Part shown: piece after piece, positions 6,599 to 32,449 of the stretch
Layout of the letters: each line of letters starts with the position of its first letter
How positions within the stretch are numbered: position 1 is the first letter of the stretch
Assembly: GCA_014859985.1 (NCBI GenBank)
Contig: JACZKN010000487.1
Location: 1 to 36,349 of the forward strand
Direction: 5' to 3'
Length of the DNA: 36,349 nucleotides
DNA from: Candidatus Krumholzibacteriia bacterium
GTDB taxonomy: Bacteria; Krumholzibacteriota; Krumholzibacteriia; LZORAL124-64-63
The notes under the pieces: model-generated
What the model saw: only the letters and a program-made list of their open reading frames with translations
Told to the model about the DNA's origin: nothing
Databases searched by the model: none
Program-made: the position numbers and the translations under genes

Positions 6599-6669
6599 TC
6601 CGACGGCAGACCGCCGTAATGGGACAAACGCAGGCGCCGGGACAGCCCGGCGTCTGCTACAATGCGGCC

Positions 6670-9005
6670 ATGGTCAAGCGCTGGCACAGCAGGATGTCCT
6701 GGCGGCGGGTCGCCCTGGCCGCCGGGTTGCTCGGCCTCTTCCTGTGGGGGTTCGTGCACCAGGCCGAGGTGGCGAAGCTGCCCGGGGATTTCCCCTGGGA
6801 CAGGCTGGTCTATCCGGCGCTGATCGACGGCGTCACCGCGGCCTCGGCCAAGGAGGTGCGCTTCCTGGCCGAGGGACACGCGCACGGCACGCGGCTCACC
6901 GTCACACCGAACGTGGGTCCGCCGGTCGAAGCCCTCCTGGTCCCGGCGGGAACCGACGCCTACCTGGCCGTGACCGGCCTCAGCGGGCTGATCTTCTGGG
7001 CCGTCTGTGCGGGAGTGTTCCTGCCCCGCTACCGCGAACCCCACGTGCCCACCTTCTTCTGGATCCTGCTGCTGTACGGCTGCGGGGTGATGATGGGCGG
7101 CGTCTACTTCCACAACGACCCGCTGGACGACGCCAGCCTCTTCGGGCTGCTGCAACTGACCTGCCTGGCGGTGCTGCCGCCGGCCTTCCTGCGCCTGACC
7201 CTCACCTTTCCCGAGCGGTCACCCCTGCTGGACCGGCACCGCTGGCTGATGCCTACCCAGTGGGTTCTGGCCGCCGCGCTCATCCTCTGGCAGGCGCAAG
7301 CCTTCTGGTCCTACTTCGGCGCACCCGGACCCGCGACCGCGGCCGGCCTCGGGCCGCCACAGGCGGCGGCCGACGTGGTGATGCTGCTGACGGTCGCCGT
7401 CGGGTTCGGGGTGCTGGTGCGCCGCGTGCGCCGCCTGGGCGACTCGCGTGCCGGCAAGCAGATCCGCTGGCTGCTGTGGGGCTTCGCCGTGGGTGCAGCG
7501 CCCTACCTGGCCCTGCGCACGCTGCCGCAGCTGTTGGGTCTGACCCCGCCCCTGCCGGTCGGTGCCGACCGGGTCCTGGAGTTGGCGGTGCCCCTGTCGT
7601 TCGGCTTCGCCGTGGTCTGGGACCAGCTCCTGGACATCGACGTCATCATCCGCCGCAGCCTGCTGTACTCGGGCCTCGCCCTTGCGCTGGTGGCGGTCCT
7701 GCTGTTGCCGACGCTGGTGTTCGCGCATCACATGGGTGGACCCGCGCCCGGTTGGCCGACGGCGTTGCTGCTGGCTGCGGGGCTGGTCGCGGGCCTGGGC
7801 TTCTTCCCCCTGCGCACCCTCCTGGGCCGGCTCATCGACCGCTTCCTGTTCGGCCTCGGCCAGGACGACGAGGCGCGCCTGCACCAACTGGAGGCACGCT
7901 TCGCCGTCCTGCGGCGGCCCGAGGAGGTGGCCCCGGAGTTGACCGCGGCGCTGCGCCACCGTTTGGACTGCACGCTTTGCGTGGTCGAAGGCGCTCCCGA
8001 CCCCGTGCTCCCGGCGGACCTCGTGGGCCTGCCTGGCGCCACCGGCGACGACGAGGCCGATCACGACGGATTCCCCGCGAGCTGGCGGGAGCGCGGCTAC
8101 GTCCTGGCCCGTCGGCTGCACTGTTCGGGCGAGGACGACGCCGTCGTCCTGGTGGACCGGCGCCGCTCGGGCCGACGCTACGTGCCCGAGGACCTCGCCT
8201 TCCTGAACAAGGCCACGGCTGCCGCCGAAGGCGCCTGGGAGCGCCTGCACCTGAGGTGCATCGTGGCCGAGGAGGCCGAGGCGCGGCATCGGCTCGACGA
8301 ATTGAACCGGCTCAAGAGCCGCTTCCTGGCCCAGGCTGCCCACGACCTGAGGACTCCGGTGACGTCGGTCTCCTGGTCGGCGCGCAACCTCCTGGACGGG
8401 CTTGCGGGCGGCCTCACCCCGCGCCAGCGCGAGTACCTCGAATCCATCCGCGACGCGGCCGGACACCTGGACACGCTGGTGGCCAATCTCCTGCAGGCCA
8501 GCCAGCTGGAGCGCGCGGTGGTGGTGCCGTCGCTGGTCGACTTCGACCTTGCGCCGCGGGTGTCGGCGGCGGTCTCGGCGGTCCGGCCCCTGGCCGAGGG
8601 TGCGGGCGTGACCTTGGACGTCGATGCCCCGGCGGACCTGCGCCTGCACGCCGACGCCGAGAAGGTGGTCGAAGCCCTGGTCAACGTCCTGGACAACGCC
8701 ATCAAGTACACGCCGCCCGGCGGCAACATCCGGGTCACCTGCCGCGCCGGCACCCCCGGCCTGGCCGCCGTGGCGGTGCGCGACCAGGGCCCCGGCCTGG
8801 CCGGTCTGACCGACCCCTTCGCCCGCTATGCCCAGGGCGCACCCAGCCCCCATTCGACGCGGCGCGGCTTCGGACTCGGCTTGTACATCGTCAAGCAGTA
8901 CGTGGAAATGATGGGCGGCAGCGTCCGCGGCGAGAACGTCCCCGGCGGCGGCGCCGTGTTCACCCTGATCCTGCCGGCCGCCTCCCGGCCGGCGAAGGAG
9001 ATCCC

Positions 9006-15151: not shown

Positions 15152-17389
15152 ATGGGGTACCAAGCGATGGACAACGGCTCGAAACCTTCACATGCGAACT
15201 CCGGTCGCAGACGCGCCGTGGCCTTTTGCGCGGTCTTGGTTTGGGCGATGCAGGGCGGGACAGCCGGCGGGCAATGCATCCGCTACGAGGACTACCTGCA
15301 CGGCATCTGCACGGTGGACATACCTGGCGTCGCCCATGACATCGCCCTCGTCGGCGCCTATGCCTACATCGCAGCCGAGGATTTCGGTTTGCAGGTGATC
15401 GACATTGCCGCGCCAGGGAACCCGCGGATCGCCGGCAGCGTGGGCACGCCGGAGTGGGTCAGGGAAGTGGCCGTTGCGGGGGACCATGCCTTTGTCTGCT
15501 ACTCGAGCTACCCGTCGACAGGCGGGGTATATGTGGTCGATATCACGAGTCCATCAAGCCCGCAGATCGTCGGTAGCCTGGCCGTCACCGGGCCGGTTCT
15601 CGGCGTGGCCGCATCTGGCACCCATGTCTTCCTCGCGGCCGGCGATGGGCTCCAGGTTGTCGACGTGGGCGATCCTGGCAGCCCCCGCCTGGTGGGCGGT
15701 TTGGTGTGCGTGGGCGAAGCCCGGGATGTCGCGGTCTCCGGCGACTATGCCTATCTCATCGATCAGTATGGCCTTGAGGTCATCGATATCACTAGTCCGG
15801 CGAGCCCGATCAGCGTGGCCAGGACCGGCGAGCCCGCGGCCCCACGCCGTGTTGCGGTCGCGGGCGGCTTCGCCTACGTCACGGATGCCCATGGTCTCCA
15901 GGTGATCGACATCAGCGACGCCGGGAGCCCCCATCGCGTGGGAAGCGTGGTGACACCGGCCGGCGCAGGAACCGTGGTCGTTGCGGGCGGACGAGCCTAT
16001 GTGACAGGCAGTTCGTGCATCCAGATCATCGACGTCTCCATCCCCGAAAGTCCCACGTATCTGGACAGCGCCGACTCCTGGGCCGGCGTCAACGGCGTCG
16101 CGGTCTCCGGCACCCAAGCCTATGTGACGCTAACGGTTGAATGGATGGGCTCCGCAATCGGCCGCCTACAGGTCATTGATGTCGCCAGCGCCCAAAGTCC
16201 TCCCTTGGCGGGCCACGTAGCCACGCCGGGGTTTGCGCAGGATGTGGTCGTTTCCAACCATTACGCGTATATCGCCAACGGTTCTTCCGGCCTTCAGGTG
16301 GCTGATATCGCCGACGCCGCGAATCCCATGATCGTCGGCAGTGTTGCCACCGATGATTCCGCCATCGGTCTTGCGCTGGCCGAGCCCTATGCCTACGTCG
16401 CCGATGCCAACGGCGGGCTGAAGGCGATCGATATTGCGAATCCTTCGGCTCCCAGGATAGTGGCCTCGGGTGGTGCTCCATTCGCACAGGACGTTGCCGT
16501 CGCAGGCAGCATCGCCTACGTGGCCGGTGCCAACATACAGATGAGCGGCCTGCTCGTCCTCGATATCAGCGAACCGCTCGCTCCCCGACGCATCGGCAGC
16601 GTGGACACGCCGGGCGGCTACTGCGGCGTCGCGGTCTCGGGCAGCACCGTCTATCTGGCCGACGGGTACTTCGGGCTCCAGGTCATCGATGTCTCCAATC
16701 CCGGGAGTCCCGCGATCGTCGGGACGGTGGACACGCCCGGCAACGCCAGGGATGTCGCGTTCTCCGGCGGTTACGTGTTCCTGGCGGACGGTGAATCTGG
16801 CCTCCAGGTCGTGGATATCAAAGACGCACGGAACCCGGGAATCGTCGGCAGCCTGGCCACCTGGGACAACGCTGAAGGAATTGTCGTCAGCGGTGACATC
16901 GCCTATGTCGCGATTGACCGCGCCGGGCTGCAGGTGATTGACATTTCCGATCCCCGGAATCCCCGGGCCGTGGGAGACGCGGGAGTCGAGGGCTACTCCC
17001 TTGGGCTCGCCGTGTCCGGTGCAAACGTCTTTGTCGCGGCGAACGGCCTGCAGATCCTGCCGGGGCAATGCAGCGATTCCAGTTCCGAGGATCCGGAGAC
17101 CCCGGTTGCGGGCATCCGGTTGCTCGCCGTCTATCCGAATCCCTTCAACCCTGGCACGACGATAGCCTACGATGCCGTCGGCGGTACCCATGTCCGCCTG
17201 GCGATATTCGACATTGCCGGTCGACTGGTACGAGACCTGGTGGACGAACGACCGGCCGTGACTGGACGCTACGAATCGACCTGGAACGGCAGGGATTCAC
17301 GCGGCATGACGGCAGCGGCCGGCGTCTATTTCTGCCGCCTCACCGCCGGTCCCTACAGCGAGACAAGGAGAATGGTGCTGGTAAAGTGA
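15152..17389 (+). CDS. Secreted LVIVD-repeat beta-propeller protein with a C-terminal FlgD-Ig/T9SS-like sorting domain (paralog 1)
   Basis: About 14 tandem ~42-45 aa units of the form GLQVIDI(S/A)xPxxPxxVGxxxTPGxAxxVAVSGxYAYVA. C-terminal domain: VYPNPFNPGTTIAYD...LAIFDIAGRLVRDLV...WNGRDSRG...GVYFCRL...RMVLVK. A signal-like N-terminus (AVAFCAVLVWAMQG) is followed by GGQCIRYEDYLH. An alternative start is at 15167. Confidence 0.88.
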   Translation: MGYQAMDNGSKPSHANSGRRRAVAFCAVLVWAMQGGTAGGQCIRYEDYLHGICTVDIPGVAHDIALVGAYAYIAAEDFGLQVIDIAAPGNPRIAGSVGTPEWVREVAVAGDHAFVCYSSYPSTGGVYVVDITSPSSPQIVGSLAVTGPVLGVAASGTHVFLAAGDGLQVVDVGDPGSPRLVGGLVCVGEARDVAVSGDYAYLIDQYGLEVIDITSPASPISVARTGEPAAPRRVAVAGGFAYVTDAHGLQVIDISDAGSPHRVGSVVTPAGAGTVVVAGGRAYVTGSSCIQIIDVSIPESPTYLDSADSWAGVNGVAVSGTQAYVTLTVEWMGSAIGRLQVIDVASAQSPPLAGHVATPGFAQDVVVSNHYAYIANGSSGLQVADIADAANPMIVGSVATDDSAIGLALAEPYAYVADANGGLKAIDIANPSAPRIVASGGAPFAQDVAVAGSIAYVAGANIQMSGLLVLDISEPLAPRRIGSVDTPGGYCGVAVSGSTVYLADGYFGLQVIDVSNPGSPAIVGTVDTPGNARDVAFSGGYVFLADGESGLQVVDIKDARNPGIVGSLATWDNAEGIVVSGDIAYVAIDRAGLQVIDISDPRNPRAVGDAGVEGYSLGLAVSGANVFVAANGLQILPGQCSDSSSEDPETPVAGIRLLAVYPNPFNPGTTIAYDAVGGTHVRLAIFDIAGRLVRDLVDERPAVTGRYESTWNGRDSRGMTAAAGVYFCRLTAGPYSETRRMVLVK

Positions 17390-18594: not shown

Positions 18595-18625
18595 TTGACC
18601 TGGCATGCGCAAAATATGGTATAGT
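18595..18625 (+). promoter_or_regulatory. Strong sigma-70-type promoter with an extended -10 (TTGACC-N19-TGgTATAGT)
   Basis: TTGACC at 18595-18600, TG at 18617-18618, TATAGT at 18620-18625, in an AT-rich island. It overlaps the ORF-track ATG at 18605. This argues that the true start of the downstream gene is 18680 (TAAGGAG 7 nt upstream) or 18728. Confidence 0.6.
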
Positions 18626-18679
18626 CAAGGAAACGAGCGTGTTCCGCTGCCGCAGCCCTTTCCCTTAAGGAGCGGGGAC

Positions 18680-21600
18680 ATGTTCGTATGTGCTTGGGCC
18701 ACCGGGAGCCCTGAAAGGTCGATTCCTATGCGCAAGCGCCGTTGCCTGGCGTGCTTGTCATGGGCGCTGGCCGTCGTCGCCGGGTGGGCGATCGCGACCG
18801 AGCCCGCGCCGGCGGCCGCCCAATGCGCCAACTACGAGAACTACATGCACTGGATCCAGGATATCGACGCGCGCGGAGCCTCGGTCCGCGGCATCGAGGT
18901 CGCCGGCACGACGGCGTATACCGTCGCTGCGTTCGACAACTATTCGGGCCTGCTGACGGCCTATGACATCTCCAACCCGGGCAAGGCGAGCCGTCTTGGC
19001 GATCTGGCCTTGACCGGGAGCTATTGGTTCGGACGAGGTGATGTCGAAGGATCGTATCTCTTCGTGGTTTCGGACAATCCCCGGCAGATGCACACGATCG
19101 ACGTTTCCGATCCGGCGCATCCCGCGGAGATCGCGGCCGTGAACCTGGTCTTCGCGCCGTTGGACATCGCGGTTTCGGGTTCGCTTGCCCTCATCGTGAC
19201 CTCCATGGGCCAGCTCCATGTCTTCGACGTCTCCAATCCCAGCGCCCCGGTGTCCGTCAGCATCGTGAATGTCCCCTCTAGCGGCCGCAAAGTGGAGATC
19301 GCAGGGGACTATGCGTACGTCTATTGCGAAGACGGCGGATTGCGGATCTACAACATCGCCGATCCGGCGAATCTCCTGGCTGCCGGTAGCGTGAGCCTGT
19401 TCGACGGCCACCCCGCCCATGAGTCGTCGAGGGACTTCGCCCTGGCCGGCGACCGCATCTATGCTCCGGTCATGGAGTCGGGGAAGGTCCACATGGTCGA
19501 TGTCCTGGATCCGGCGAACCCACAGCTGATCGCCAGCCTGGATCTTGCCAACGGGGGATTCATCGATGTCAGCGGTGACCTCGCCTACGTTTCGGATCCG
19601 ACTGGGATGTCGGTCATCGACGTTTCGAGTCCGACGGCCCTCGAGTTCCTGGGCTGGGTCCCCTATGCCAGCTCGGGCTCCGGATGGCCGGCCGTGGACG
19701 TCGTGGCGGCCGGGTCGTTCCTCTACCTGGCCTTCGGACGAACCGGCGACAACACGCTGGACTCGGAGGTCTTCTCCCTCGGCTCACCCTGCGACCGGGG
19801 CGTCGTCGGCAGCCTGGACACGCCGGGCAGCGCCGAAGCGGTCGTCATCGACGGCAACTACGCCTATGTCGCCGACGGCCCCGGCGGGGTGCGGATCATC
19901 GACGTGACCGATCCCCTCGTCCCGGTGGAGGTCGGGTCCTACGACACTCCCGGTTACGCCACGAAGCTCGTCGTGTCGGGCGGATTCGCCTTTGTTGCCG
20001 ACGGCGAACAGGGGTTGCAGATTCTCGACGTCGTCGATCCCTTGAATCCCGTCTTCAAGGGTGCGACGGGGACCGCCCACGACGCCGTTGCCCTCGATAT
20101 CGCCGATTCCCTGGTCTACATCGCCGACAGCGATTCCGGTTTGACCGTAGTCAACGCGGCGGACCTCGCGGCCCCTGTCGTCATCGCCCGCGTCGACACC
20201 GGAGGCAGCACCCGGGACGTCGCCGTGGCGGGCGAGTACGCGTTTCTCGCCGACGGCTCGGGCGGGCTCCGCACGGTGAACCGGAACGTGGAGGAGCCCT
20301 CCGATCCGTGGATCATCGGCGGCGTGAAGTCCTTCAGCGTGAACGATGCCAGGGGCGTGATGGTCGACGGGACCCTGGCCTATGTCGCCGACGCGGATTC
20401 CGGACTCTACATCATCGACGTCTTCGACCCCGCGACGCCGATTCCCCTGGGCGAAGCCGCCACCCAGAGCGCGGCCAGTGACGTTTTCGTGTCCGATTCC
20501 TTCGCGTACGTCGCCGACGGCGGGTCCGGCCTGAAGCTGTTCAACGTCCAGACGCCCGCAGAGCCCTACATCGCAGCCAATCTGGCGGTGCCGTCGGTGA
20601 CCAGGGGTGTTTTCGTCACCCAGTACTACACGTTCATAGCCGCCGCGGATTCGGGGCTGCAGATCGTCCCGTCGCAGTGTGCGTTCGCCGAGTACCCGAC
20701 GGCGTTCTTCAATATGAGTTCCGCGACCGCCTTCAGGCCGGCCGCCATCGCCTTCTTCGACAACTCCACGGGATACATCACGGGATACGACTGGGATTTC
20801 GGCGACGGCACGGCGCACAGCACGGCGGTCAGCCCGGTCCACCTGTACGATGTCCCGGGCGACTATCTCGTGACCCTGACGGTTTCCAGCCCGACCACGT
20901 CCGACAGCATGACACGATCACTCACGATACTGACCGAGGCGCCCTACATAACGGCCGTGACGGACGTCCCGGCGGACCAGGGCGGGTTCGTCTACCTGGA
21001 GTTCCACAAGAGCTTCTACGACGACACGCTGCCGAGCGACGCCGGCCCCGACAAGGCCGCAGAGATCTACACGATCCAGCGGCAGGATGACGGACGTTGG
21101 GTTACCGTCGCGACCTCGGGCGCCTACGGGGACCAGTACTACTCGGTCCTGGCCGGTACCCAGGGCGACGGCGCGGTGGACTGGACCACCGTATTCCGGG
21201 TCATCGCGCACATGGATGAGGGGATCTGGATCGGTCCCGAGGCCAGCGGTTTCAGCGAGGACAACATCGCTCCGGCGGCCCCGACCGATCTCGCCTGGCA
21301 GGAGGACGGCATGCTGACCTGGTCGCCGGTCGCAGCCTACGATCTTGCCTACTACAAGGTCTGCACGGGGCCGAACGGATCCTTTGCGGAATCCACGCCG
21401 TTCGGCACCACCGTCGAAACCCGGATGGACCTCTCCAGCTCGACCGATAGCTGGGTATTCGTCGTCGCGGTGGACGATGCCGACCTTGAGAGTCTCCCCT
21501 CCACGCCCGTGGCCGTTTCCGGCGTGCCGGATGCCGGCAACGCGCTTCGGCTCTTTCCCGCGGTCCCCAATCCGTTCAACCCCAGCACGACCATCCGGTT

Positions 21601-21817
21601 CGTCCTGCCGGAGGAATGCAGGGCGCGCCTGGCGATCTACGACGTCAGCGGTCGTCTGGTCCGGGTCCTGGTTGACCGGTACATGGCGCCCGGGATCCAC
21701 GGAGCGGTCTGGCTGGGAGAGGATCAGGCGGGTCGAGCCGTGGCCTCGGGGACCTATTTCGGCCGGCTGGATGCGGCGGGGAAGGTCCTGACCGGACGCA
21801 TGACACTCGTAAAATGA
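18680..21817 (+). CDS. Secreted LVIVD-repeat protein with a PKD domain and a C-terminal FlgD-Ig/T9SS-like sorting domain (paralog 2)
   Basis: AAGGAG at 18667-18672 lies 7 nt before ATG 18680. Signal peptide: MRKRRCLACLSWALAVVAGWAIA (alternative start 18728), then AAAQCANYENYMH. LVIVD-type units: GVRIIDVTDPLVPVEVG, GLQILDVVDPLNP, GLYIIDVFDPATP, GLKLFNVQTPAEP. PKD motif: YDWDFGDGTAHS...VTLTVSS. C-terminal domain: VPNPFNPSTTIRF...LAIYDVSGRLVRVLV...GTYFGRL...RMTLVK. Confidence 0.88.
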   Translation: MFVCAWATGSPERSIPMRKRRCLACLSWALAVVAGWAIATEPAPAAAQCANYENYMHWIQDIDARGASVRGIEVAGTTAYTVAAFDNYSGLLTAYDISNPGKASRLGDLALTGSYWFGRGDVEGSYLFVVSDNPRQMHTIDVSDPAHPAEIAAVNLVFAPLDIAVSGSLALIVTSMGQLHVFDVSNPSAPVSVSIVNVPSSGRKVEIAGDYAYVYCEDGGLRIYNIADPANLLAAGSVSLFDGHPAHESSRDFALAGDRIYAPVMESGKVHMVDVLDPANPQLIASLDLANGGFIDVSGDLAYVSDPTGMSVIDVSSPTALEFLGWVPYASSGSGWPAVDVVAAGSFLYLAFGRTGDNTLDSEVFSLGSPCDRGVVGSLDTPGSAEAVVIDGNYAYVADGPGGVRIIDVTDPLVPVEVGSYDTPGYATKLVVSGGFAFVADGEQGLQILDVVDPLNPVFKGATGTAHDAVALDIADSLVYIADSDSGLTVVNAADLAAPVVIARVDTGGSTRDVAVAGEYAFLADGSGGLRTVNRNVEEPSDPWIIGGVKSFSVNDARGVMVDGTLAYVADADSGLYIIDVFDPATPIPLGEAATQSAASDVFVSDSFAYVADGGSGLKLFNVQTPAEPYIAANLAVPSVTRGVFVTQYYTFIAAADSGLQIVPSQCAFAEYPTAFFNMSSATAFRPAAIAFFDNSTGYITGYDWDFGDGTAHSTAVSPVHLYDVPGDYLVTLTVSSPTTSDSMTRSLTILTEAPYITAVTDVPADQGGFVYLEFHKSFYDDTLPSDAGPDKAAEIYTIQRQDDGRWVTVATSGAYGDQYYSVLAGTQGDGAVDWTTVFRVIAHMDEGIWIGPEASGFSEDNIAPAAPTDLAWQEDGMLTWSPVAAYDLAYYKVCTGPNGSFAESTPFGTTVETRMDLSSSTDSWVFVVAVDDADLESLPSTPVAVSGVPDAGNALRLFPAVPNPFNPSTTIRFVLPEECRARLAIYDVSGRLVRVLVDRYMAPGIHGAVWLGEDQAGRAVASGTYFGRLDAAGKVLTGRMTLVK

Positions 21818-21847
21818 CCGTGGACCTGCGGGTCGGGGAGTAGGTCC

Positions 21848-24121
21848 GTGAGCCAATCCGAAGCCGGCCCCTATGTCTTCCTCAGCTACTCCAGGGGCGA
21901 TCGCGAATTCGCCGGGCGGCTGGCGCAGGCCCTGCAGAACCAGGGTCTGCACGTCTGGTGGGATGCTGAGATCCCCGCGGGGGTCCATTATCCCAAGTAC
22001 ATCGAAGACGGCCTGAAATCCGCAGCATGCGTGGTCGTGCTCTGGTCGGCCCACAGCGCCGCCTCGCGCTGGGTGCGCAACGAGGCGGATTGGGGTGCCG
22101 AGAACGCCACGCTTGTGCCCCTGCTGATCGACGACATCGAGATCCCGTGGGAGTTCCGCAACTTCCAGACTCTCGACCTGTCGCACTGGGATGGCAAGCC
22201 CGACGACCCCGCCTTCCGGAAACTGCTGCAGGGACTGCAAGGCCGATTGGGGGCGTCCCGGGCGGTCCCCGGCGCACCGGAAGGGCCTGTCGGCGCTCCC
22301 TCTGTCCGGCAAGGGGCCTTTTCCCGAAGCCGCGACCGGAGCGCGACGGGGGTGGCCCGGAAGCGGTGGTTCGTCCCCGTCGGGCTCCTGTTGGCGGCGG
22401 CCCTGGGCATCGTGCTGTACTCCTTGTCGCCCTTGCGCCCCCCGCGGGCGCTCGAACCGGCCGAGGAGACGATCTCCTTCAAGCCCCTGACCGGCGACGG
22501 GCTGACCCATTCCTCGGCGATCTCGCCGGACGGCAAGTACCTGGCCTACACCCGCATCGAGGCGGGCAGGACCGGCCTGCGCCTCAAGCAGATCGAAACG
22601 GGAAGCGAAAGCACCCTCGTGCAGGGCGGTGCCCGCGGGATCAAGTCGCCGATCTTCTCGCCGGACGGTGTGTACGTCTTCTTCGTGATGAACGCCGGGA
22701 CTCCGGAAGCCCCGGACGGGGCGGTCTCCAATCTCTACAGGATCTCCATGCTCGGGGGCGAGCCCAGGATCGTCACCAGCGGGGTGGTCGACCGCAGGTT
22801 CGACTGTTCGCCCGACGGGCGCCGACTGGTCTTCAAGAGGATCGTCGGGGATTCGACCCGGATCATGGTCGTCGGTACCGACGGAACGGGGGAGCGGCAG
22901 ATCGCGGCCGGGCGGCACGAGCAATCGATGCGCCACTGTATTGCCTGGTCGGCTGACGGCGCCGAGGTTCTCACGGCCAGGCGCGACTCGATCTCGGGGT
23001 TCCTCGATCTGATCGCCTTGCCCGTTGCCGGCGGTACTCCGCGGATCGTGGGAGGGGACCCGTGGCAGACCGTCCTGGACATCCGCCCCCTGGTGGACGG
23101 ATCCGGGCTGCTCGTCCTGGGCAAGCCGGTGCCGGCGGTCGGCTTGAACATCAACCTGTGGCTGCTGCGGACGGGTGCGGAGAATTTCACGGCGCTGACC
23201 AACGACGTGACGATGTACTACCAGGTCACCTCCGACAGGTCGTGCCGCAACCTGGCTCTCAACTACTACGGCGCCAAGAGGACGCTGCGGATCATCGAGA
23301 TGGGGCCTGGGGGGCGCGTCCGGGACATCTCGACCGACCTGGTCGCCAACGGACGGGTGCTCTGGGCCGGGGATGACCGGTTGCTGGTCAACCAGAGCGT
23401 CGGCAGCAGGATCGGCCTTGTGCTTGTGGACGTCCGCGACGGCACGATCAGGAATGTCCCGACGGACGTCGAGTACGTCGCGGAGATGGATCTGTCCACC
23501 GATCGCCGCGTCATGGCCTTCCGCTCGTACCTGGGCGGCGGCAACGCCATCTGGCTGGCCAATGGTGACGGGAGCTCTCCCCGGAACCTGACGGAAAGCG
23601 GGGGAGACGAGATCAATCCCCAGCTCGCTCCCGACGGCCGGTGGCTCGTCTATTCCCGCCGCGACACCCCCGCGAAGCCGTGGTACATCTGGAAGAGATC
23701 CCTCGTCGACGGCTCAGCGTCGCCGCTTCTGGACACGCCAGGCACGGGGCCCAGGATCTCGCCGGACGGGACCCGTCTGGTGGCGGTGTTCAGGGATCCG
23801 ACAACGGGGGGCTCCCGGCTGGCCTTGGCGTCCACGGCGGGGGGCGAACTCCAGCCGGTGACCGTGCCGGACGACCACGATCTGTTGTGCTGGAATCCCG
23901 ATGGATCCGGATTCACCAGTTCGAGCAGGGCGGGGGGCCGCCTGGTGATCTGGGACCTGCCGCTCAGCGGCGGGGCGCCGAGACAACTGGCGGAGTTTCC
24001 TGCCAACCTGGAGAAGATCACGGACGCCGCGTGGAGCCCCGACGGCGGGTCCCTGGCTGTCTGCCTGGAGGTTGCGGCGTACGACGCGCTCCTGTTGCAG
24101 CGCTCGGGCGGCGCACGCTAG
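21848..24121 (+). CDS. TIR-domain protein with a single TM helix and a C-terminal TolB-like (PD40) beta-propeller
   Basis: GTG start with GGGGAG 7 nt upstream, 30 nt after the LVIVD gene. TIR_2-type N-terminus: YVFLSYSRGDREFAGRLAQALQNQGLHVWWDAEI...CVVVLWSAHSAASRWVRNEADW, with putative catalytic Glu79 in WVRNE (nt 22082-22084). TM helix: WFVPVGLLLAAALGIVLYSL (nt ~22367-22426). PD40-type motifs: ISPDGKYLAY, FSPDGVYVFF, CSPDGRRLVF, WSADGAEV, LAPDGRWLVYS, ISPDGTRLVAV, WNPDGSGF, WSPDGGSLAV. Confidence 0.88.
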   Translation: MSQSEAGPYVFLSYSRGDREFAGRLAQALQNQGLHVWWDAEIPAGVHYPKYIEDGLKSAACVVVLWSAHSAASRWVRNEADWGAENATLVPLLIDDIEIPWEFRNFQTLDLSHWDGKPDDPAFRKLLQGLQGRLGASRAVPGAPEGPVGAPSVRQGAFSRSRDRSATGVARKRWFVPVGLLLAAALGIVLYSLSPLRPPRALEPAEETISFKPLTGDGLTHSSAISPDGKYLAYTRIEAGRTGLRLKQIETGSESTLVQGGARGIKSPIFSPDGVYVFFVMNAGTPEAPDGAVSNLYRISMLGGEPRIVTSGVVDRRFDCSPDGRRLVFKRIVGDSTRIMVVGTDGTGERQIAAGRHEQSMRHCIAWSADGAEVLTARRDSISGFLDLIALPVAGGTPRIVGGDPWQTVLDIRPLVDGSGLLVLGKPVPAVGLNINLWLLRTGAENFTALTNDVTMYYQVTSDRSCRNLALNYYGAKRTLRIIEMGPGGRVRDISTDLVANGRVLWAGDDRLLVNQSVGSRIGLVLVDVRDGTIRNVPTDVEYVAEMDLSTDRRVMAFRSYLGGGNAIWLANGDGSSPRNLTESGGDEINPQLAPDGRWLVYSRRDTPAKPWYIWKRSLVDGSASPLLDTPGTGPRISPDGTRLVAVFRDPTTGGSRLALASTAGGELQPVTVPDDHDLLCWNPDGSGFTSSSRAGGRLVIWDLPLSGGAPRQLAEFPANLEKITDAAWSPDGGSLAVCLEVAAYDALLLQRSGGAR

Positions 24122-24154
24122 TTCGGCGCGCGTATCCCCGCTCCCGACGGCCGG

Positions 24155-25831
24155 ATGAATCTCGTACGGGCGAAAGGTGTAGACCGCATGGCCATGCCCA
24201 ACGGTTTGAGAATCGGGGTGACCGGTCACCGCAGGCTGGCCCATTGCGACCAGACGGCAGCAGCGGTCCGTTCCGTCCTCGCGGAGATCATCGGAGGGGA
24301 TATGCGGTCGTCCGCGGCTGCTCCGGAAACGGGCGCTCCCGGCGTTCTGGTAGCCGTATCCCCGCTGGCCGAAGGTGCCGACCGGCTGGTGGCCCGGGAG
24401 ATCCTTCGCCGCCCCGGCGGCCGGCTCCAGGCCGTCCTGCCCCTGCCCGCCGAGGAGTATGCCAGGGACTTCCCGACCGAGGAGTCGCGGCGGGAGTTCG
24501 CCGCGCTCCTGGGCGCCGCGGAAGAGACGTTCACCGTGGCGGACCAGGCCACCCGCGGCGAGGCCTACCGTCTCGTGGGGCGGGAAGTCGTGGACCGCTG
24601 CGATCTTCTCATCGCCATCTGGGACGGAGACCCTGCGCGGGGTAAAGGCGGCACTGCCGAGACCGTCGCCTACGCCCGCAGCAGGAACAAACCCATCTAT
24701 CTGATCGACGGCGAGAGTCCGACCAGGATCACCCGGGAAGGGTTTGTTGCGGACCGGGATTCCACCGGAGGCGAGGGCCTGGCAACAGGGCCGGCTCCGC
24801 GGCCGCCCTCGGCCCCGCTCGACGGACTGAACAACCTGGGTGACCTGGACCGCGCTCTGGAGGAATGCAAGGGTTCCGGAGCCGGGGAGGACGAGGAGGG
24901 CGCGGGGCGGGCCCTGACCCGCAGGCTCCAGCAGGTCATTGCCCATTTCGGTCCCGCGTACCACGAAGCGGGCGCGCGTGCCGAGAGGGCCCAGAACACC
25001 TACCGCCAGACCTCCAAGGCCGTCTACATCCTGGCCACCCTGGCGGTGCTGATCGTGGCCGCGCAATCGATCTTCGGGCTTTCCCACTGGATCATCGCCG
25101 GGGAATTCGGCGCCATCGCAGTCATCCTGTTGATGACCAAGCTGGGCAATCGGCGGGGCTGGCACATGTTATGGCTGGAGAACCGTCTTGAGGCCGAGTG
25201 GTTGCGCCACGGCATCTTCGTGGCCTTCCTCAGCGGCCAGACCACTCCCGGGATCGACCGCCACTGGGCGTGCCGTTGGGTCGCGAGATCGGACGGGGTG
25301 GCCAAGGTCAAACAGGTCTGGAACGAGCTTCCCCACCTGGGAGCGCCCCCGGAGGCTGGCCTGGGCATCCTCAAGGCTTTCATGAGGAGTGCCTGGCTCG
25401 AGGAGCAGCGGGACTACCATGCGCGGAAGGCCGCCCACGAGGTCGCCAAGCATCACCGCATCGAGCGTGCCGGTGAACTGGCGTTCTGGCTGACGTTTGT
25501 CGCCGCCGCCCTGCATCTGGTCCCCCATTCGATCTACCACCATTTCCACCTGCCGGACAAGCCCATCATCAGGGTATTGACGATCCTGGCCATCGGCCTG
25601 CCGGCGCTGGGCGCGGCCCTGACCGGCCTGCGCGCTCATTTCGAGTACAGGAAGATCGCCGCCCGGTCGGCCATGATGGCCGAACATCTGGAGATCCTGA
25701 TCGGGGACCTGGCCGGCGTCCGGACGGTCACGCAGCTGGGTGAGCTGGTGAAGGAGACCGAGACCCTGATGCTCCAGGAGAACTCGGACTGGTACTTCAC
25801 CATCGGCCTGCACGAACTGGAAAAGGGGTAG
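24155..25831 (+). CDS. SLOG-like (LOG/DprA-type Rossmannoid) N-terminal domain fused to two 2-TM SLATT/DUF4231-like modules
   Basis: Lies 33 nt after the TIR gene. N-terminus: LRIGVTGHRRL...VLVAVSPLAEGADRLVA...LQAVLPLP...YRLVGREVVDRCDLLIAIWDGDPARGKGGTAETVAYAR..KPIYLI (aa ~17-190). Module 1, aa ~262-355: YHEAGARAERAQNTYRQTSKAVYILATLAVLIVAAQ / IIAGEFGAIAVILLMTKL. Module 2, aa ~405-520: EEQRDYHARKAAHEVAKHHRIERAGELAFWLTFVAAALHLV / VLTILAIGLPALGAALTGLRAHFEYRKIAARSAMMAEHLE. Alternative starts at 24188 and 24194. Confidence 0.8.
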   Translation: MNLVRAKGVDRMAMPNGLRIGVTGHRRLAHCDQTAAAVRSVLAEIIGGDMRSSAAAPETGAPGVLVAVSPLAEGADRLVAREILRRPGGRLQAVLPLPAEEYARDFPTEESRREFAALLGAAEETFTVADQATRGEAYRLVGREVVDRCDLLIAIWDGDPARGKGGTAETVAYARSRNKPIYLIDGESPTRITREGFVADRDSTGGEGLATGPAPRPPSAPLDGLNNLGDLDRALEECKGSGAGEDEEGAGRALTRRLQQVIAHFGPAYHEAGARAERAQNTYRQTSKAVYILATLAVLIVAAQSIFGLSHWIIAGEFGAIAVILLMTKLGNRRGWHMLWLENRLEAEWLRHGIFVAFLSGQTTPGIDRHWACRWVARSDGVAKVKQVWNELPHLGAPPEAGLGILKAFMRSAWLEEQRDYHARKAAHEVAKHHRIERAGELAFWLTFVAAALHLVPHSIYHHFHLPDKPIIRVLTILAIGLPALGAALTGLRAHFEYRKIAARSAMMAEHLEILIGDLAGVRTVTQLGELVKETETLMLQENSDWYFTIGLHELEKG

Positions 25832-30121: not shown

Positions 30122-30718
30122 ATGCGTTCAGCGGTTCTCATGTCCTGCATCCTGGCGGTCTCCTGGTCCACCGCGTGCCCCGCGGAGACCATGACCGTGA
30201 GCGTCCCGGCGACTTCCGGCAGCCATACGATCCATCTCGGGGAGTCCCGTTACCAGGTCAGCGCGGTCTCCTACTCGGTTGCCGGTACGGCAGAGGGATC
30301 GCGGTGGGCCTGCTGGCGCTTCGACCAGCAGGAGTTCGAATGGGTCTTCAGCTACTACTTCGAAGTCCCCAAGTACATCGGCATCTACAAGACGATCGGC
30401 GCGTGCCAGCTCTGGGACGAGTGGCGGCAAGCGGCAAATGGCGGGTTCACCATCACGGGTCGTCCCGTTGAGATCACGGGAAACGACTGCGAGCCGCTGC
30501 TGGTGGATCGTGACCTGCCCCTGTCCATCAGTTTCGGGAACGATCCCGCCGTCCTGTCGGACACCTGCTGCGATTATTACACCTACCGCCTGGCGCAGGA
30601 ACTGGTATCGCCGGGGCAACTCACGTTCGCGACGGCCTTCACGTTCGTGATCGAGTACGAAGCTGTCGTTCCTGCCGGGCGATCCGGCTGGGGAACGGTC
30701 AAGGCGCGGTATCGCTAG
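30122..30718 (+). CDS. Secreted Cys-containing protein of unknown function
   Basis: GGAGGAGGG lies upstream. Signal peptide: MRSAVLMSCILAVSWSTACPA. The product ends ...SGWGTVKARYR. Lower GC than the flanks. Confidence 0.7.
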   Translation: MRSAVLMSCILAVSWSTACPAETMTVSVPATSGSHTIHLGESRYQVSAVSYSVAGTAEGSRWACWRFDQQEFEWVFSYYFEVPKYIGIYKTIGACQLWDEWRQAANGGFTITGRPVEITGNDCEPLLVDRDLPLSISFGNDPAVLSDTCCDYYTYRLAQELVSPGQLTFATAFTFVIEYEAVVPAGRSGWGTVKARYR

Positions 30719-32112
30719 CGACCCCCGCCCGCGTCGTCCTCGGCCCGCGCCAGCTGCGCCAGTGTCCAGTTGTCGTCGGCTGCCGCCAGCACCTTGTCCA
30801 GTGCGATCCAGCGGCGGGCCACCTCGCCGAGGGCGGATTCGGGCACCGGGTCGGGCGGCTCCACCCCGGGTGCAGTGCGGTCCTCGGTGGCGCCCGCGAG
30901 CGCGTCGATGGCCTGGACCACCTCCACCGTGGTGACCGCCTCGGGGTCGCGGGCCGGCTGGTAGGCCGGAGGCTGGCCGGGCGCGCCCCGCACTTCCACC
31001 AGGACCGACGCCGCCAACAGGTCATGCAGCACGGCGTGGGCCAGGCGCGAGGGTACGCCGATGTGCTCGGCCAGCGCGGCCGCCGTCGCCGGCGGCCTGC
31101 CCGCGATAAACCGCGCCGCGCAGATCGCGGCGAGGCGCACCGCCAGCATGCGCCGCTGGCGATGGCTGGCGCCGCCGGCAGCCCGCTCCCGGGCGTAGTC
31201 GCCGGCGTTGTCCACCGCGAACGACACCTCAGCCCCCACCAGCACGATGAGCCAACTCACGTAGAGCCAGATCAGGAACAGCGGCAGCACCGCGAAACTG
31301 CCGTAGACGGCGTTGTATCGCGCGACGTTCACGACCAACTGGATGGAGCCGAACTGCACGACCTGGATGAGCGTGCCTGCCACCACGCCCGCCGCCAGTC
31401 CTGCGCGCCAACTCACCTTGGTGTTCGGCAGGGCCAGGTACACCACGGTCATGAGCAGCCAGAGGAGGACGAACGGTACCAGCTCCAGGCCCGCCAGCAC
31501 GGCGCCGCTGACGGGCTCGGCCACGCCGAGCCCGGCCAGGGCGGCATCCACCCGGCCGCTGACCACCACCGAGAAGCTGCTGCTGGCCAGCAGCAGCAGG
31601 GGCCCCAGCACCGCGATGGCCAGGTAGTCGGTGATCCTGCGCAGCACGGTGCGCCCGCGATCCACGCTCCAGATGGCGTTGAACGACGCCTCGACGGTGC
31701 CGAGCAACCGCACCGCCGCCCACAGCAGCAGCGCCACGCCGACTCCGGCCACGAGTCCGCCGCGGGTGTTGTCGAGCAGGGCGCGGGAGAACCGGATCAC
31801 CTGGTCGAGGGCCTCCTGTTGGCCCGCCAGTTGCCGGCGCAGGGTGTCCTCCAGGGCGGCCTCCAGGCCGAAGCTCTTCGCGATGCCGAAGGCCAGCGCC
31901 AGGGTGGGCACGACGGACATCAGGGTGTAGTAGACCAGGGCCGACGCCCGCAGTTGCAGCGAGTTGGCGGTGAATCCCCGGGCCGCCAGGACCACGATGC
32001 GCAGCAGGCGCAGCAGGAACGAGCGGCGGCCCGCCGGGGTCTGCTCGGGCAGATGCCAGATGTCGTGCTGGATGAGGCGGCGGGTGCGTTGCCAGAGGTG
32101 GCGAAGGTTCAT
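30715..32112 (-). CDS. YihY/BrkB-family polytopic membrane protein with a C-terminal Rrf2-like winged-helix extension
   Basis: YihY features: LRASALVYYTLMSVVPTLALAFGI, YGSFAVLPLFLIWLYVSWLIVLVGAEV. C-terminal ~150 aa: RRMLAVRLAAICAARFIAGRPPATAAALAEHIGVPSRLAHAVLHDLLAASVLVEVRG...ARDPEAVTTVEVVQAID. I take the start at ATG 32112 (MNLRHLWQRTRR). The ORF-track start at 32232 adds an Arg/Pro-rich leader. Confidence 0.8.
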   Translation of the reverse strand: MNLRHLWQRTRRLIQHDIWHLPEQTPAGRRSFLLRLLRIVVLAARGFTANSLQLRASALVYYTLMSVVPTLALAFGIAKSFGLEAALEDTLRRQLAGQQEALDQVIRFSRALLDNTRGGLVAGVGVALLLWAAVRLLGTVEASFNAIWSVDRGRTVLRRITDYLAIAVLGPLLLLASSSFSVVVSGRVDAALAGLGVAEPVSGAVLAGLELVPFVLLWLLMTVVYLALPNTKVSWRAGLAAGVVAGTLIQVVQFGSIQLVVNVARYNAVYGSFAVLPLFLIWLYVSWLIVLVGAEVSFAVDNAGDYARERAAGGASHRQRRMLAVRLAAICAARFIAGRPPATAAALAEHIGVPSRLAHAVLHDLLAASVLVEVRGAPGQPPAYQPARDPEAVTTVEVVQAIDALAGATEDRTAPGVEPPDPVPESALGEVARRWIALDKVLAAADDNWTLAQLARAEDDAGGGR

Positions 32113-32449
32113 GGCCGGTGTTCGCTTCCGGAAATGGTGGACGGCCGCGCGCCATGGCCGCCGTGCCGGCGGATCCTGTCGTTCCCACACTAGCGCGAGA
32201 TCAGCGGCGCGTCCACGGAGCGGTCGGCACACGGCGACCCGGGCGGAGCTGATCCGCGTGTCGGGGGGTTGGTTCGACGGTATCTCGGGCCGTCTGAACC
32301 CGGGGCCCGCCCATGTCCGCAGGTCAACGGTAGCTGGACTTCACCGCTCCCCGGGCCTGATCCAGATTCGGAGTGCTTCCGCAGCCGGTCGCTTTTCTGA
32401 TGCGGGTGTCCGTGACCTCGGTGCGCCGGCACGAGTCCGTGAGTCCGGA

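Follow-up and report, generated by a model that had tools for sequence, protein, structure and literature searches.

Two adjacent genes in the window (the whole stretch of DNA analysed, 36,349 nt) probably encode a Thoeris-like second-messenger relay, in which a signal made by a TIR domain would be received by a SLOG domain and turned into a membrane effect by SLATT modules; the probability of this reading is put at roughly 0.6. The same wiring, a TIR producer plus a SLOG-SLATT sensor-effector, had been proposed in the initial annotation, and it is still the best reading because the domain calls hold, the pair co-occurs widely and the glutamate E79 of the TIR domain is invariant. Both genes lie on the + strand, separated by 33 nt. 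Gene 1 (21848..24121) starts with GTG and codes for a receptor-like TIR protein of 757 aa, as judged from the ORF, Pfam and NCBIfam matches, a structure model and full-length homologs (P0127-P0133, P0136 and P0191). Gene 2 (24155..25831) codes for a 558 aa SLOG-2xSLATT protein, a predicted sensor-effector, and the homologs of this ORF span residues ~14-556. The GTG of gene 1 is preceded by an SD-like GGGGAG (21835-21840), while gene 2 has an alternative start, ATG 24188, with an SD-like AAAGGTG ahead of it. A promoter-like site, CTGACC-16-TAAAAT, was found upstream of gene 1 (21788..21815, + strand); one such site against 0.3 expected is a weak indication. The search of the gap between the two genes for a promoter-like site found none.

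The N-terminal part of the gene 1 protein is a TIR_2 domain (aa 10-127; 21875..22228, + strand), a predicted NAD+-consuming signal synthase. It matched Pfam TIR_2 with an E-value of 1.8e-25 (90 bits, cut-off 28), and its matches among PDB sequences were BtTir, AbTir, PdTIR and TcpB. The domain is of the TIR_2 type, as had been noted from the sequence; its score against ThsB_TIR was 20.9, slightly under the cut-off of 21.2. The predicted catalytic glutamate, Glu79 (codon at 22082..22084, + strand), belongs to a W75-V-R-N-E79 motif (WVRNE, aa 75-79). In the PDB alignments it falls on the glutamate of WxxxE in AbTir, PdTIR and TcpB, and it is the sole invariant column among 42 TIR partners encoded in gene-2-type loci. 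With this alignment and this conservation, the domain looks catalytic.

A single transmembrane (TM) helix follows at aa 175-193 (22370..22426, + strand; hydropathy peak 2.29; helix 176-193 in the AF2 model). A basic stretch, RSRDRS...RKRW, precedes the helix on its N-terminal side, and the TIR domain is therefore placed in the cytoplasm. Beyond the membrane lies a tandem PD40/TolB-type beta-propeller, the predicted sensor (aa 208-753; 22469..24106, + strand), which matched PD40 (E 1e-20) and the NCBIfam TolB-propeller model (E 1.3e-24); it was modelled as a confident all-beta tandem propeller (pLDDT ~90), and its best Foldseek match was tricorn protease 1k32 (E 1e-16). The description given at the outset, of a TIR anchored in the membrane and bearing a large propeller outside the cytoplasm, is confirmed. 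The TM-propeller half is homologous to receptors (28-44% identity over ~570 aa), and the cytoplasmic domain was Pkinase in 30 of 55 TM-propeller homologs and Trans_reg_C in 23. By homology, therefore, the chassis of gene 1 is a receptor chassis, and the distinctive part of the pair is the TIR protein. Since the TM-propeller is shared with kinase-headed or OmpR/CadC-headed receptors, outside-in activation is implied, and the gene pair may be switched on by an extracellular cue.

The gene 2 protein begins with a YpsA-like Rossmannoid SLOG domain (aa 17-195; 24203..24739, + strand), a predicted nucleotide-signal sensor. In the AF2 model (pLDDT 86.5) this domain matched YpsA 2nx2 by Foldseek (E 6e-5, TM 0.70), and further matches were DprA, the SLOG domain of BcThsA 7uxs (TM 0.40) and LOG 5zbl. 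None of the Pfam SLOG models gave a significant match (cpYpsA E 0.066), and the domain went unrecognised in a profile search of PDB sequences; the SLOG assignment, which agrees with the original proposal, is one of modelled fold plus motifs. The pocket motifs GVTGHR, LAEGADR and WDG...GGT are invariant or nearly so among homologs, and three glycine-rich/charged loops are invariant. Invariant polar residues are H25, R26, E73, D76, R77, R134, Y138 and W156, with D157 nearly invariant. E169, the Glu of GGTxE at the catalytic Glu position of LOG, is replaced by Q, D or T among homologs; this variability is compatible with the SLOG domain acting as a sensor and is no proof of binding.

Two 2-TM modules of the DUF4231/SLATT kind had been recognised downstream of the SLOG domain, and both are found. 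The first is DUF4231/SLATT_3-type, with TM helices at aa 289-307 and 309-331 (24980..25210, + strand): aa 276-352 matched DUF4231 with an E-value of 1.6e-4 and a score of 22.5, slightly under the cut-off of 24.7, and NCBIfam SLATT_3 with an E-value of 0.048. The second, with TM helices at aa 442-460 and 471-489 (25397..25792, + strand), matched Pfam SLATT_1 over aa 415-546 with 28.8 bits, over the cut-off of 26.3. Among 31 gene-2 homologs, DUF4231 was matched in 20 and SLATT_1 in 29. Four TM helices are predicted in total, and no SIR2 domain was matched by Pfam in gene 2. With its SLOG fold, invariant loops and two SLATT modules, gene 2 looks like a sensor-effector.

The pairing was surveyed in 83 loci encoding gene-2 relatives from Chloroflexota, Acidobacteriota, Actinomycetota, Gemmatimonadota, Proteobacteria and other phyla. 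A TIR_2 gene was present within 1.3 kb of the gene-2 relative in 42 of them, and all 42 partner proteins matched TIR_2; the pair does, then, co-occur in other genomes. Same-strand arrangements were either TIR-first (16 pairs) or effector-first (14), while seven pairs were divergent and five convergent. Near gene-2 relatives the density of TIR genes, at 0.22 per kb, was 10.5 times the 0.021 per kb counted between 1.3 and 8 kb away. The adjacency recurs across distant phyla at ~30% identity and with unrelated flanks. The closest gene-2 relatives (46-50% identity) keep the pair despite inversion of gene 2; in loci L001-L003 and L085, the TIR gene still has gene 2 beside it, in inverted orientation. 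The pairing of the two gene types is not due to chance. The C-terminal half of the 42 TIR partners varies, with PD40 (9), WD40 (10), TPR (7) and AAA_16 (7), as would be expected of a sensor, and 20 of the 42 have a TM helix shortly after the TIR domain. About half of the gene-2 relatives have no adjacent TIR gene, and some of these have TrkA_N/AAA-RyR or DUF4062-STAND partners instead. Among nine close gene-1 relatives, two had no SLOG-SLATT gene beside them within the sequence available, and one further locus could not be scored. Related operons also carry genes for RyR-domain proteins; domains of this kind either bind 2'/3'cADPR or cleave it (PMC13232231).

Directly upstream of gene 1 lies a gene (18605..21817, + strand) that, according to its Pfam matches, encodes a secreted LVIVD-PKD-FlgD_ig beta-propeller protein with a T9SS-like tail; it might tentatively be considered an accessory. 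LVIVD-PKD homologs (38-42% identity) adjoin the TIR-TM-propeller gene in seven of nine related loci, where the other flanks differ. The neighbourhood in the window contains genes for secreted LVIVD proteins, epimerases and BrkB, and no defence genes. The neighbours of 41 related pairs were mostly housekeeping genes with few defence matches, and one relative adjoins Fic/HTH, AbiEii and transposase genes. Neither the window nor most related loci have the context of a defence island, and for this reason the biological role of the pair is unproven. The conflict-module role first suggested for it is retained in part: the domain calls hold, and an anti-phage role is inferred.

In the relay favoured here, the extracytoplasmic tandem PD40 propeller of the single-pass gene 1 receptor would detect a cue, and ligand-driven clustering would bring its cytoplasmic TIR domains together. 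Once assembled, the TIR domains would turn NAD+, through Glu79, into a signal derived from ADP-ribose, for which a cyclic ADPR isomer is the likeliest candidate. On the cytoplasmic side, the YpsA-like SLOG domain of gene 2 would bind this signal, and the bound domain would alter the packing or oligomerisation of the two SLATT hairpins (four TM helices), so that the inner membrane would leak and the cell would be arrested or die. The likeliest role of such a relay is an abortive-infection-type defence or another envelope-triggered conflict or stress response.

The same chemistry might instead serve envelope or cell-surface signalling, with the TIR-made nucleotide gating SLOG-SLATT as a regulated channel in a reversible response and the propeller reading the extracellular or periplasmic state, possibly via the adjacent secreted LVIVD protein. 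This is rather unlikely. In its favour, ordinary Ser/Thr kinase or OmpR/CadC-type wHTH receptors share the TM-propeller chassis, the surroundings are chromosomal, with housekeeping genes, the gene for the LVIVD-PKD surface protein recurs as a neighbour, and defence was not seen in E. coli with 'SLOG and 4TM' systems. Yet all characterised bacterial TIR-plus-effector pairs of such logic are anti-phage, and SLATT is the effector of type VII Thoeris. SLATT effectors in CBASS are toxic and pore-forming, which also argues against a signalling purpose, as do the patchy distribution over many phyla with highly variable sensor domains, typical of conflict systems, and the relative found beside Fic/HTH, AbiEii and transposase genes. 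Alternatively, the TIR domain could itself be the effector, a receptor-activated NADase that depletes NAD+, with SLOG-SLATT acting independently or upstream of it. PADLOC, which matched gene 2 to no defence model, returned effector-type TIRs (the SAVED-TIR of CBASS and a pAgo-associated TIR) as best matches of the gene 1 TIR, and the two close gene-1 relatives lacking an adjacent SLOG-SLATT gene point the same way; Yirmiya et al. (2025) also consider that the TIR of unverified putative Thoeris types might be an NAD+-depleting effector. This possibility is made improbable by the consistent pairing of the TIR with a partner combining a nucleotide-sensor fold with a membrane effector, by the RyR-domain proteins (cADPR-isomer binders) in related operons, and by type I Thoeris, in which the signal receiver is a SLOG domain.

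Much less probable is that the SLOG domain is a LOG-like or glycosidase-like enzyme acting on a nucleotide, as a signal terminator or maker of a second signal and not a passive sensor. LOG-family SLOG proteins are phosphoribohydrolases, the invariant polar residues listed above are many, and the TIR-SLOG effector of type IX Thoeris is not activated by the expected 3'cADPR; but the GGTxE Glu is variable, no enzymatic activity is known for the nearest folds, YpsA and the ThsA SLOG domain, and direct fusion to a pore module favours gating. That the genes adjoin by chance or inherited synteny, with no functional link, is very hard to believe. Some adjacency in the closest relatives could be inherited, the LVIVD neighbour being conserved too, but recurrence in distant phyla in four orientations, the excess of TIR genes beside gene 2 and the gene 2 inversions all contradict it.

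Gene 1 shares the TM helix and tandem propeller of TolB/PD40 propeller receptors, which have a Ser/Thr-kinase or OmpR/CadC wHTH head, but its predicted output is a TIR with a Glu at the catalytic position and not a kinase or DNA-binding domain. Its arrangement also mirrors the topology of Toll-like receptors, with the sensor outside, one TM helix and the TIR inside. The ectodomain of gene 1 is a propeller, whereas those of Toll-like receptors are LRR, with no homology between the two; Toll-like receptor TIR domains are scaffolds, not enzymes. In type I Thoeris (ThsB TIR plus ThsA SIR2-SLOG, 3'cADPR), as predicted here, a TIR producer is combined with an effector that reads the signal by a SLOG domain, and Foldseek matched gene 2 to, among others, the 3'cADPR-binding SLOG domain of BcThsA. 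The gene 2 domain is nearer to YpsA than to ThsA, the output of ThsA is a SIR2 NADase while that of gene 2 is a membrane module, and the gene 1 TIR is TIR_2-type, with a ThsB_TIR score slightly below threshold. Type II Thoeris (TIR plus TM-Macro, His-ADPR) likewise links a TIR signal to a pore-forming membrane effector via a cytoplasmic ADPR-binding domain, but its sensor is Macro, not SLOG, and its TM part is not SLATT.

SLATT owes its name to the association of this domain with SLOG, and SLOG-SLATT and TIR-SLATT conflict systems were reportedly predicted by comparative genomics by Burroughs et al. (NAR, 2015). These Aravind-group systems are predictions only, and the architecture of gene 2 is a YpsA-like SLOG plus DUF4231-type and SLATT_1 modules. 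In two papers of the group (PMC9503650, PMC7159879), pore formation in response to nucleotides or ADPR derivatives is predicted for SLATT effectors, and SLATT is linked to SLOG and TIR. The pair had been thought to lack a characterised precedent, a view that no longer stands: the TIR + SLATT composition and the '4TM SLOG' class are both on record, and the pair is not new in kind. '4TM SLOG' or 'SLOG and 4TM' is a putative Thoeris configuration found beside TIR genes (Yirmiya et al. 2025, Tables S1, S2), and its label fits gene 2, which has a SLOG domain and four TM helices and lies beside a TIR gene. Only eight TIRs, all of one TIR cluster, are listed for it, and their similarity to gene 1 and the 42 partners is generic TIR similarity only; of the 'SLOG and 4TM' systems, those from Streptomyces sp. 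GKU 895 and Ca. Nitrospira nitrosa were tested in E. coli, and neither conferred defence (Yirmiya et al. 2025). Type VII Thoeris, experimentally verified, consists of a ThsB TIR and the SLATT protein ThsH and, with canonical cADPR as its signal, protects against phage (Yirmiya et al. 2025, bioRxiv 10.64898/2025.12.03.692087). The present pair is likewise a two-gene TIR + SLATT module in which an ADPR-derived signal is predicted to act on a membrane-breaching SLATT. Compared by description, ThsH is SLATT only, with ligand pockets between SLATT protomers, whereas gene 2 adds a separate N-terminal SLOG domain and two tandem SLATT modules; and, unlike the type VII TIR, for which no TM or extracytoplasmic region is described, gene 1 codes for a transmembrane receptor of 757 aa.

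The pair comprises gene 1 (positions 21848-24121, + strand; 757 aa), which starts with a GTG codon preceded by GGGGAG, and gene 2 (24155-25831, + strand; 558 aa). These ORF positions agree exactly with those of the initial annotation, as do their shared strand and the 33 nt that separate them. A promoter-like site was detected just 5′ of gene 1 and none between genes 1 and 2, which fits, weakly, with co-transcription. The public gene call for the gene 2 ORF (P0001) is 480 aa long, starting at residue 79, and would drop half of the SLOG domain, including the GVTGHR and LAEGADR motifs. Since homologs span residues ∼14-556, the long 558-aa ORF is, judging from these alignments, the correct form of gene 2. 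Translation could plausibly begin instead at an ATG at position 24188, which follows an AAAGGTG.

The N-terminal part of the gene 1 product (aa 10-127) matched Pfam TIR_2 with an E-value of 1.8e-25. The glutamate of its WxxxE motif, W75-V-R-N-E79, aligned with that of the solved bacterial TIRs BtTir (7uxr), AbTir (7uwg/8g83), PdTIR (3h16) and TcpB (4c7m/4lqc), confirming the TIR domain and the WVRNE glutamate recognized initially. In an alignment of 42 partner proteins (TIR_2 proteins encoded within 1.3 kb of gene 2 relatives), E79 was the sole invariant column, which argues that selection maintains the TIR as an enzyme. A single hydrophobic helix was found at aa 175-193; since a basic stretch precedes it, the TIR domain is predicted to be cytoplasmic and the remaining 550 residues to lie outside. 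Gene 1 also matched PD40 repeats in Pfam (E 1e-20) and a TolB-propeller model in NCBIfam (E 1.3e-24), and AlphaFold modelled aa 208-753 as an all-beta tandem propeller with a pLDDT of ∼90, whose best structural matches were tricorn protease and other double propellers. The model was built on an alignment of 27 sequences; its TIR part was of low confidence, as few alignment rows contained the TIR. The helix and the propeller model agree with the earlier description of a membrane-anchored TIR bearing a large, presumably extracytoplasmic propeller.

Gene 1 was searched against 1.8 billion representative proteins and the top 150 matches were inspected. Full-length TIR-TM-propeller relatives numbered nine. 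Most matches aligned to the TM-plus-propeller part alone (28-44% identity over ∼570 aa), and these proteins have another cytoplasmic N-terminus in place of the TIR: a Ser/Thr kinase in 30 of 55 such relatives, and an OmpR/CadC-type winged helix in 23. Because the propeller is common to kinase and winged-helix receptors, gene 1 appears to be a single-pass receptor of a generic type whose cytoplasmic domain has been swapped for a TIR, the propeller being the predicted sensor and the cytoplasmic domain the predicted output; this suggests that the TIR might be activated from outside the cytoplasm. A TIR enzyme on a chassis of the kinase or DNA-binding type would mean that NAD+-derived signalling is started from outside the bacterial cell. 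What most sets the locus apart is this receptor-type TIR protein. Outside their TIR domains the 42 partners varied, carrying WD40 (10), PD40 (9), TPR (7) or AAA_16/STAND (7) regions, and in 20 of them a TM helix lay no more than 130 residues from the TIR; by their domain content, the TIR partners are apparently sensor-bearing proteins.

The AlphaFold model of gene 2 (pLDDT 86.5) contained a Rossmannoid domain at residues 17-195. Its best PDB fold matches in Foldseek all belonged to the SLOG superfamily: YpsA (E 6e-5, TM 0.70) and, further, DprA, the 3′cADPR-bound SLOG domain of BcThsA, and LOG. The SLOG-like Rossmannoid N-terminus proposed earlier was thus upheld by its fold. No significant SLOG match to gene 2 was obtained in Pfam, NCBIfam or PADLOC (cpYpsA gave an E-value of 0.066); YpsA was matched in only one of 31 gene 2 homologs (E 0.0013), and a profile of 22 SLOG domains found no match among PDB sequences. 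Since sequence models were silent, the assignment comes from the fold, and the domain is a divergent YpsA-like family not covered by current sequence models. The GVTGHR, LAEGADR and WDG...GGT loops (conserved forms GxTGHR, AEGADR and GxGGT) were invariant or nearly so among homologs 30-35% identical overall, and are probably the signature of the predicted ligand pocket.

A disordered linker separates the SLOG domain from two 2-TM helical modules, giving four predicted TM helices. The second module matched Pfam SLATT_1 at 28.8 bits against a cut-off of 26.3, and SLATT_1 was matched in 29 of the 31 homologs; the first fell just under the cut-off for DUF4231/SLATT_3, and DUF4231 was matched in 20 of the 31. 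Both 2-TM modules of the initial annotation therefore stand as DUF4231/SLATT-type, one above the cut-off and the other sub-threshold but recurrent in homologs; the HMM support anticipated for gene 2 was obtained for SLATT_1 and not for SLOG. The hhalign comparison of the two SLATT halves was weak (E 0.0018, probability 15%), so that an internal duplication is not claimed as proven. The SLATT name is said to have been taken by Burroughs and colleagues, in 2015, from an association with SMODS and SLOG.

A word-filtered protein search returned more than 838 homologs of gene 2, and at least 514 matches were confirmed in species-representative genomes. Pairing was assessed in the best 80 genome loci, three close-relative loci and the window, all ORFs being scanned with an iterated TIR profile. 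A TIR-like ORF lay within 8 kb of the gene 2 relative in 54 of 84 loci, and a TIR ORF within 1.3 kb in 42 of 83 distinct loci; all 42 partners matched Pfam TIR_2. TIR density within 1.3 kb was 10.5 times that of the 1.3-8 kb flanks. The pairs occurred in all orientations (16 TIR-first, 14 effector-first, seven divergent and five convergent), and in the closest relatives (46-50% identity; loci L001-L003 and L085) the two genes are still neighbours, with gene 2 inverted against the TIR gene. The check proposed initially, whether homologous genomes conserve the pair, thus gave a positive answer. From its domain make-up, gene 2 joins a predicted sensing domain to a predicted toxic output domain, and it is kept as a pair with a TIR. 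Some SLOG-2xSLATT genes lacking a TIR_2 neighbour adjoin genes for DUF4062-STAND(AAA_16/NACHT)-TPR proteins (L019:3471-7946, L070:1309-4536 and L063:8857-9576; coordinates after an L-number are positions within that locus). As DUF4062 resembles TIR, the count given here may understate how often the family is associated with TIR-type proteins.

The window was also compared with eight loci of close gene 1 relatives (L001 and L002 being counted as one). A SLATT-type effector occurs together with the gene 1-type TIR in six of these nine loci. In the window, the gene for a secreted LVIVD-PKD-FlgD_ig protein, the TIR gene and the SLOG-SLATT gene follow one another on the same strand. The SLOG-SLATT gene is convergent with the TIR gene in L001/L002 and L003, both without the LVIVD gene, and in L085, where the LVIVD gene precedes the TIR gene. 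L090 contains, on one strand, the LVIVD gene, separate genes for SLOG (202 aa) and 2xSLATT (354 aa), a gene for an 872-aa AAA-like RyR protein, and the TIR gene. In L088, the LVIVD and TIR genes are followed by a SLOG-less 2xSLATT gene (379 aa) and a stand-alone 96-aa RyR domain. The SLOG-SLATT gene is absent from the available sequence of two loci, L086 (TIR and LVIVD genes as neighbours) and L087 (LVIVD then TIR); in L089, also LVIVD then TIR, the contig ends directly after the TIR gene and is too short to tell. The link between gene 1-type TIRs and SLATT effectors is therefore strong, although not obligatory. The SLOG gene of L090 (622-1230) is 48% identical to gene 2 and overlaps the 2xSLATT gene (1220-2284; 40% identical), an arrangement that is either a genuine split or an assembly frameshift.

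An LVIVD-PKD-FlgD_ig homolog (38-42% identity) adjoins the TIR gene in seven of the nine loci, namely the window (18605-21817, + strand) and L085, L086, L087, L088, L089 and L090; the other flanks differ. It is a secreted beta-propeller protein with a T9SS-tail-like end, and could be a co-receptor, a guarded surface protein or a case of inherited synteny. A second LVIVD-repeat protein (15152-17389, + strand), a paralog of the first, has a Por_Secre_tail/FlgD_ig C-terminus, which suggests T9SS-type sorting in the organism.

Genes with an RyR domain (PF02026) recur in or beside TIR/SLOG-SLATT operons, also in other phyla; none was found in the window. They lie at L090:2325-4943, L088:7572-7862, L011:4178-6685, L017:5814-7733, L029:2376-5006, L039:8232-10106 and L070:5408-8245, and take the forms TrkA_N-RyR, AAA-like-RyR, RelA_SpoT plus RyR, and the stand-alone 96-aa domain. 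Ten homologous TrkA_N- or AAA-type proteins form a cluster, one of which adds RelA_SpoT and a sub-threshold LSDAT SLOG. Phage RyR-domain proteins bind 2′/3′cADPR at nanomolar affinity or cleave them (2026 preprint, PMC13232231). Taken with the host RyR genes in these operons, this is independent, indirect evidence hinting that the SLOG-SLATT/TIR family signals with cADPR-type molecules; by analogy, host RyR proteins may natively sense or terminate the TIR signal. In L088, the 2xSLATT gene without SLOG (6392-7531; DUF4231 plus SLATT_1) follows the TIR gene and is itself followed by the 96-aa RyR gene, suggesting that RyR can stand in for SLOG as the ligand-binding part. The recurrent RyR genes offer a direct route to the role of host RyR domains in TIR signalling.

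From the observed domain identities, topology, conserved residues and gene linkage we infer a relay, with a probability of about 0.6, each biochemical step of which, like its trigger, is put forward conditionally. The propeller of gene 1 would sense a cue and the TIR domains would gather; NAD+ would then be converted, in a Glu79-dependent manner, into an ADPR-derived signal that would occupy the SLOG pocket of gene 2, whereupon the SLATT hairpins would rearrange or oligomerize and membrane integrity would be lost. A defence role for such a relay is suggested by analogy and not by the neighbourhood. Annotation revealed no defence genes near the pair in the window, its neighbours being secreted LVIVD proteins, sugar epimerases, a BrkB-Rrf2 protein and a spermidine-synthase-like protein; there were no tRNAs in the window and no obvious island in its GC content, and PADLOC had no model matching gene 2. 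Most of the 129 genes examined around 41 related pairs are housekeeping genes, and few of them matched a PADLOC model; one relative adjoins Fic, AbiEii and transposase genes. With no clear enrichment in the PADLOC and Pfam scans of these neighbours, a 'defence island' was dropped as support. The BrkB-Rrf2 protein is a 505-aa ORF (30715-32232, - strand) with a BrkB-type membrane domain (E 1e-52) and a C-terminal Rrf2-like region below the cut-off (E 3.5e-6); L088 likewise has an Rrf2 gene, at the flank of its LVIVD-TIR cluster.

Given these surroundings, the same relay might instead serve non-immune envelope signalling, which we hold to be a minor but real contender. That the TIR acts as the effector itself, by depleting NAD+, is rather improbable. 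That the SLOG domain is enzymatic, instead of receiving the signal of the relay, is very unlikely, and that genes 1 and 2 have no functional link is scarcely credible, chance adjacency having been ruled out by the all-orientation pairing and the 10.5-fold density. A more specific version of the relay, more speculative than the relay itself and less likely than not, treats gene 1 as a 'receptor TIR' of TLR-like topology. The propeller would detect an event at the envelope, for example damage, an adsorbing phage or the condition of the secreted LVIVD protein conserved alongside it; a cyclic-ADPR-type TIR product would open a SLOG-gated SLATT pore, and the RyR proteins of sister operons would be native sensors or terminators. 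Tentative as it is, it would, if true, describe the first outside-in Thoeris-type pathway.

Thoeris systems generally have a TIR with a glutamate at the catalytic position, which gene 1 shares (E79), and an adjacent effector with a sensing and an output domain, matched by the SLOG and SLATT of gene 2. In type I the receiver is also a SLOG and the output a SIR2, ThsA consisting of SIR2 plus a STALD-type SLOG; gene 2 gave no SIR2 or STALD match in Pfam, NCBIfam or PADLOC, and its output is SLATT in place of SIR2. In type II the effector is a TM protein that senses through a Macro domain. Type VII pairs a TIR with SLATT and signals with canonical cADPR (Yirmiya et al. 2025, bioRxiv 10.64898/2025.12.03.692087). 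Its effector trait, the SLATT domain, is present in gene 2 (SLATT_1, 28.8 bits); compared by description, its effector ThsH consists of SLATT alone and takes up its ligand in pockets between protomers, whereas gene 2 has an extra SLOG and a second SLATT. A '4TM SLOG' or 'SLOG and 4TM' effector is one of the 29 putative types in that work (eight TIRs, one cluster), and the two such systems tried in Escherichia coli gave no defence (Yirmiya et al. 2025). Gene 2 fits this label: it adjoins a TIR gene and combines a SLOG with four predicted TM helices, a likeness of architecture that makes it a candidate member. The published '4TM SLOG' TIR sequences (Table S1) showed generic TIR similarity alone to gene 1 and its relatives, and the TIR domains of the Nitrospira and Streptomyces 'SLOG and 4TM' systems, used as queries, did not return the exact proteins. 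Papers from the Aravind group regard SLATT as an effector that forms pores under the control of ADPR derivatives, and place it beside TIRs (PMC9503650, PMC7159879).

The composition is therefore not without precedent: TIR plus SLATT is type VII, '4TM SLOG' is already catalogued, and TIR plus SLOG-SLATT was predicted and partly catalogued, and is not a new kind. Of the original proposal of a producer TIR with a SLOG-SLATT sensor-effector, the plausible wiring and the conserved pairing stand, the novelty was overstated, and the function is a putative one. The SLOG-2xSLATT family is large, is paired with TIRs across many phyla and has a putative function; a native-like test case is valuable because the catalogued examples failed in E. 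coli. In the Thoeris descriptions compared, the TIR protein recognizes phage invasion and an extracytoplasmic sensor domain is not mentioned, whereas the TIR of gene 1 sits on a predicted transmembrane propeller receptor, an arrangement (sensor outside, TIR inside) that parallels the topology of animal Toll-like receptors. The locus is thus a SLOG-2xSLATT Thoeris-like module whose TIR is carried by a transmembrane propeller receptor.
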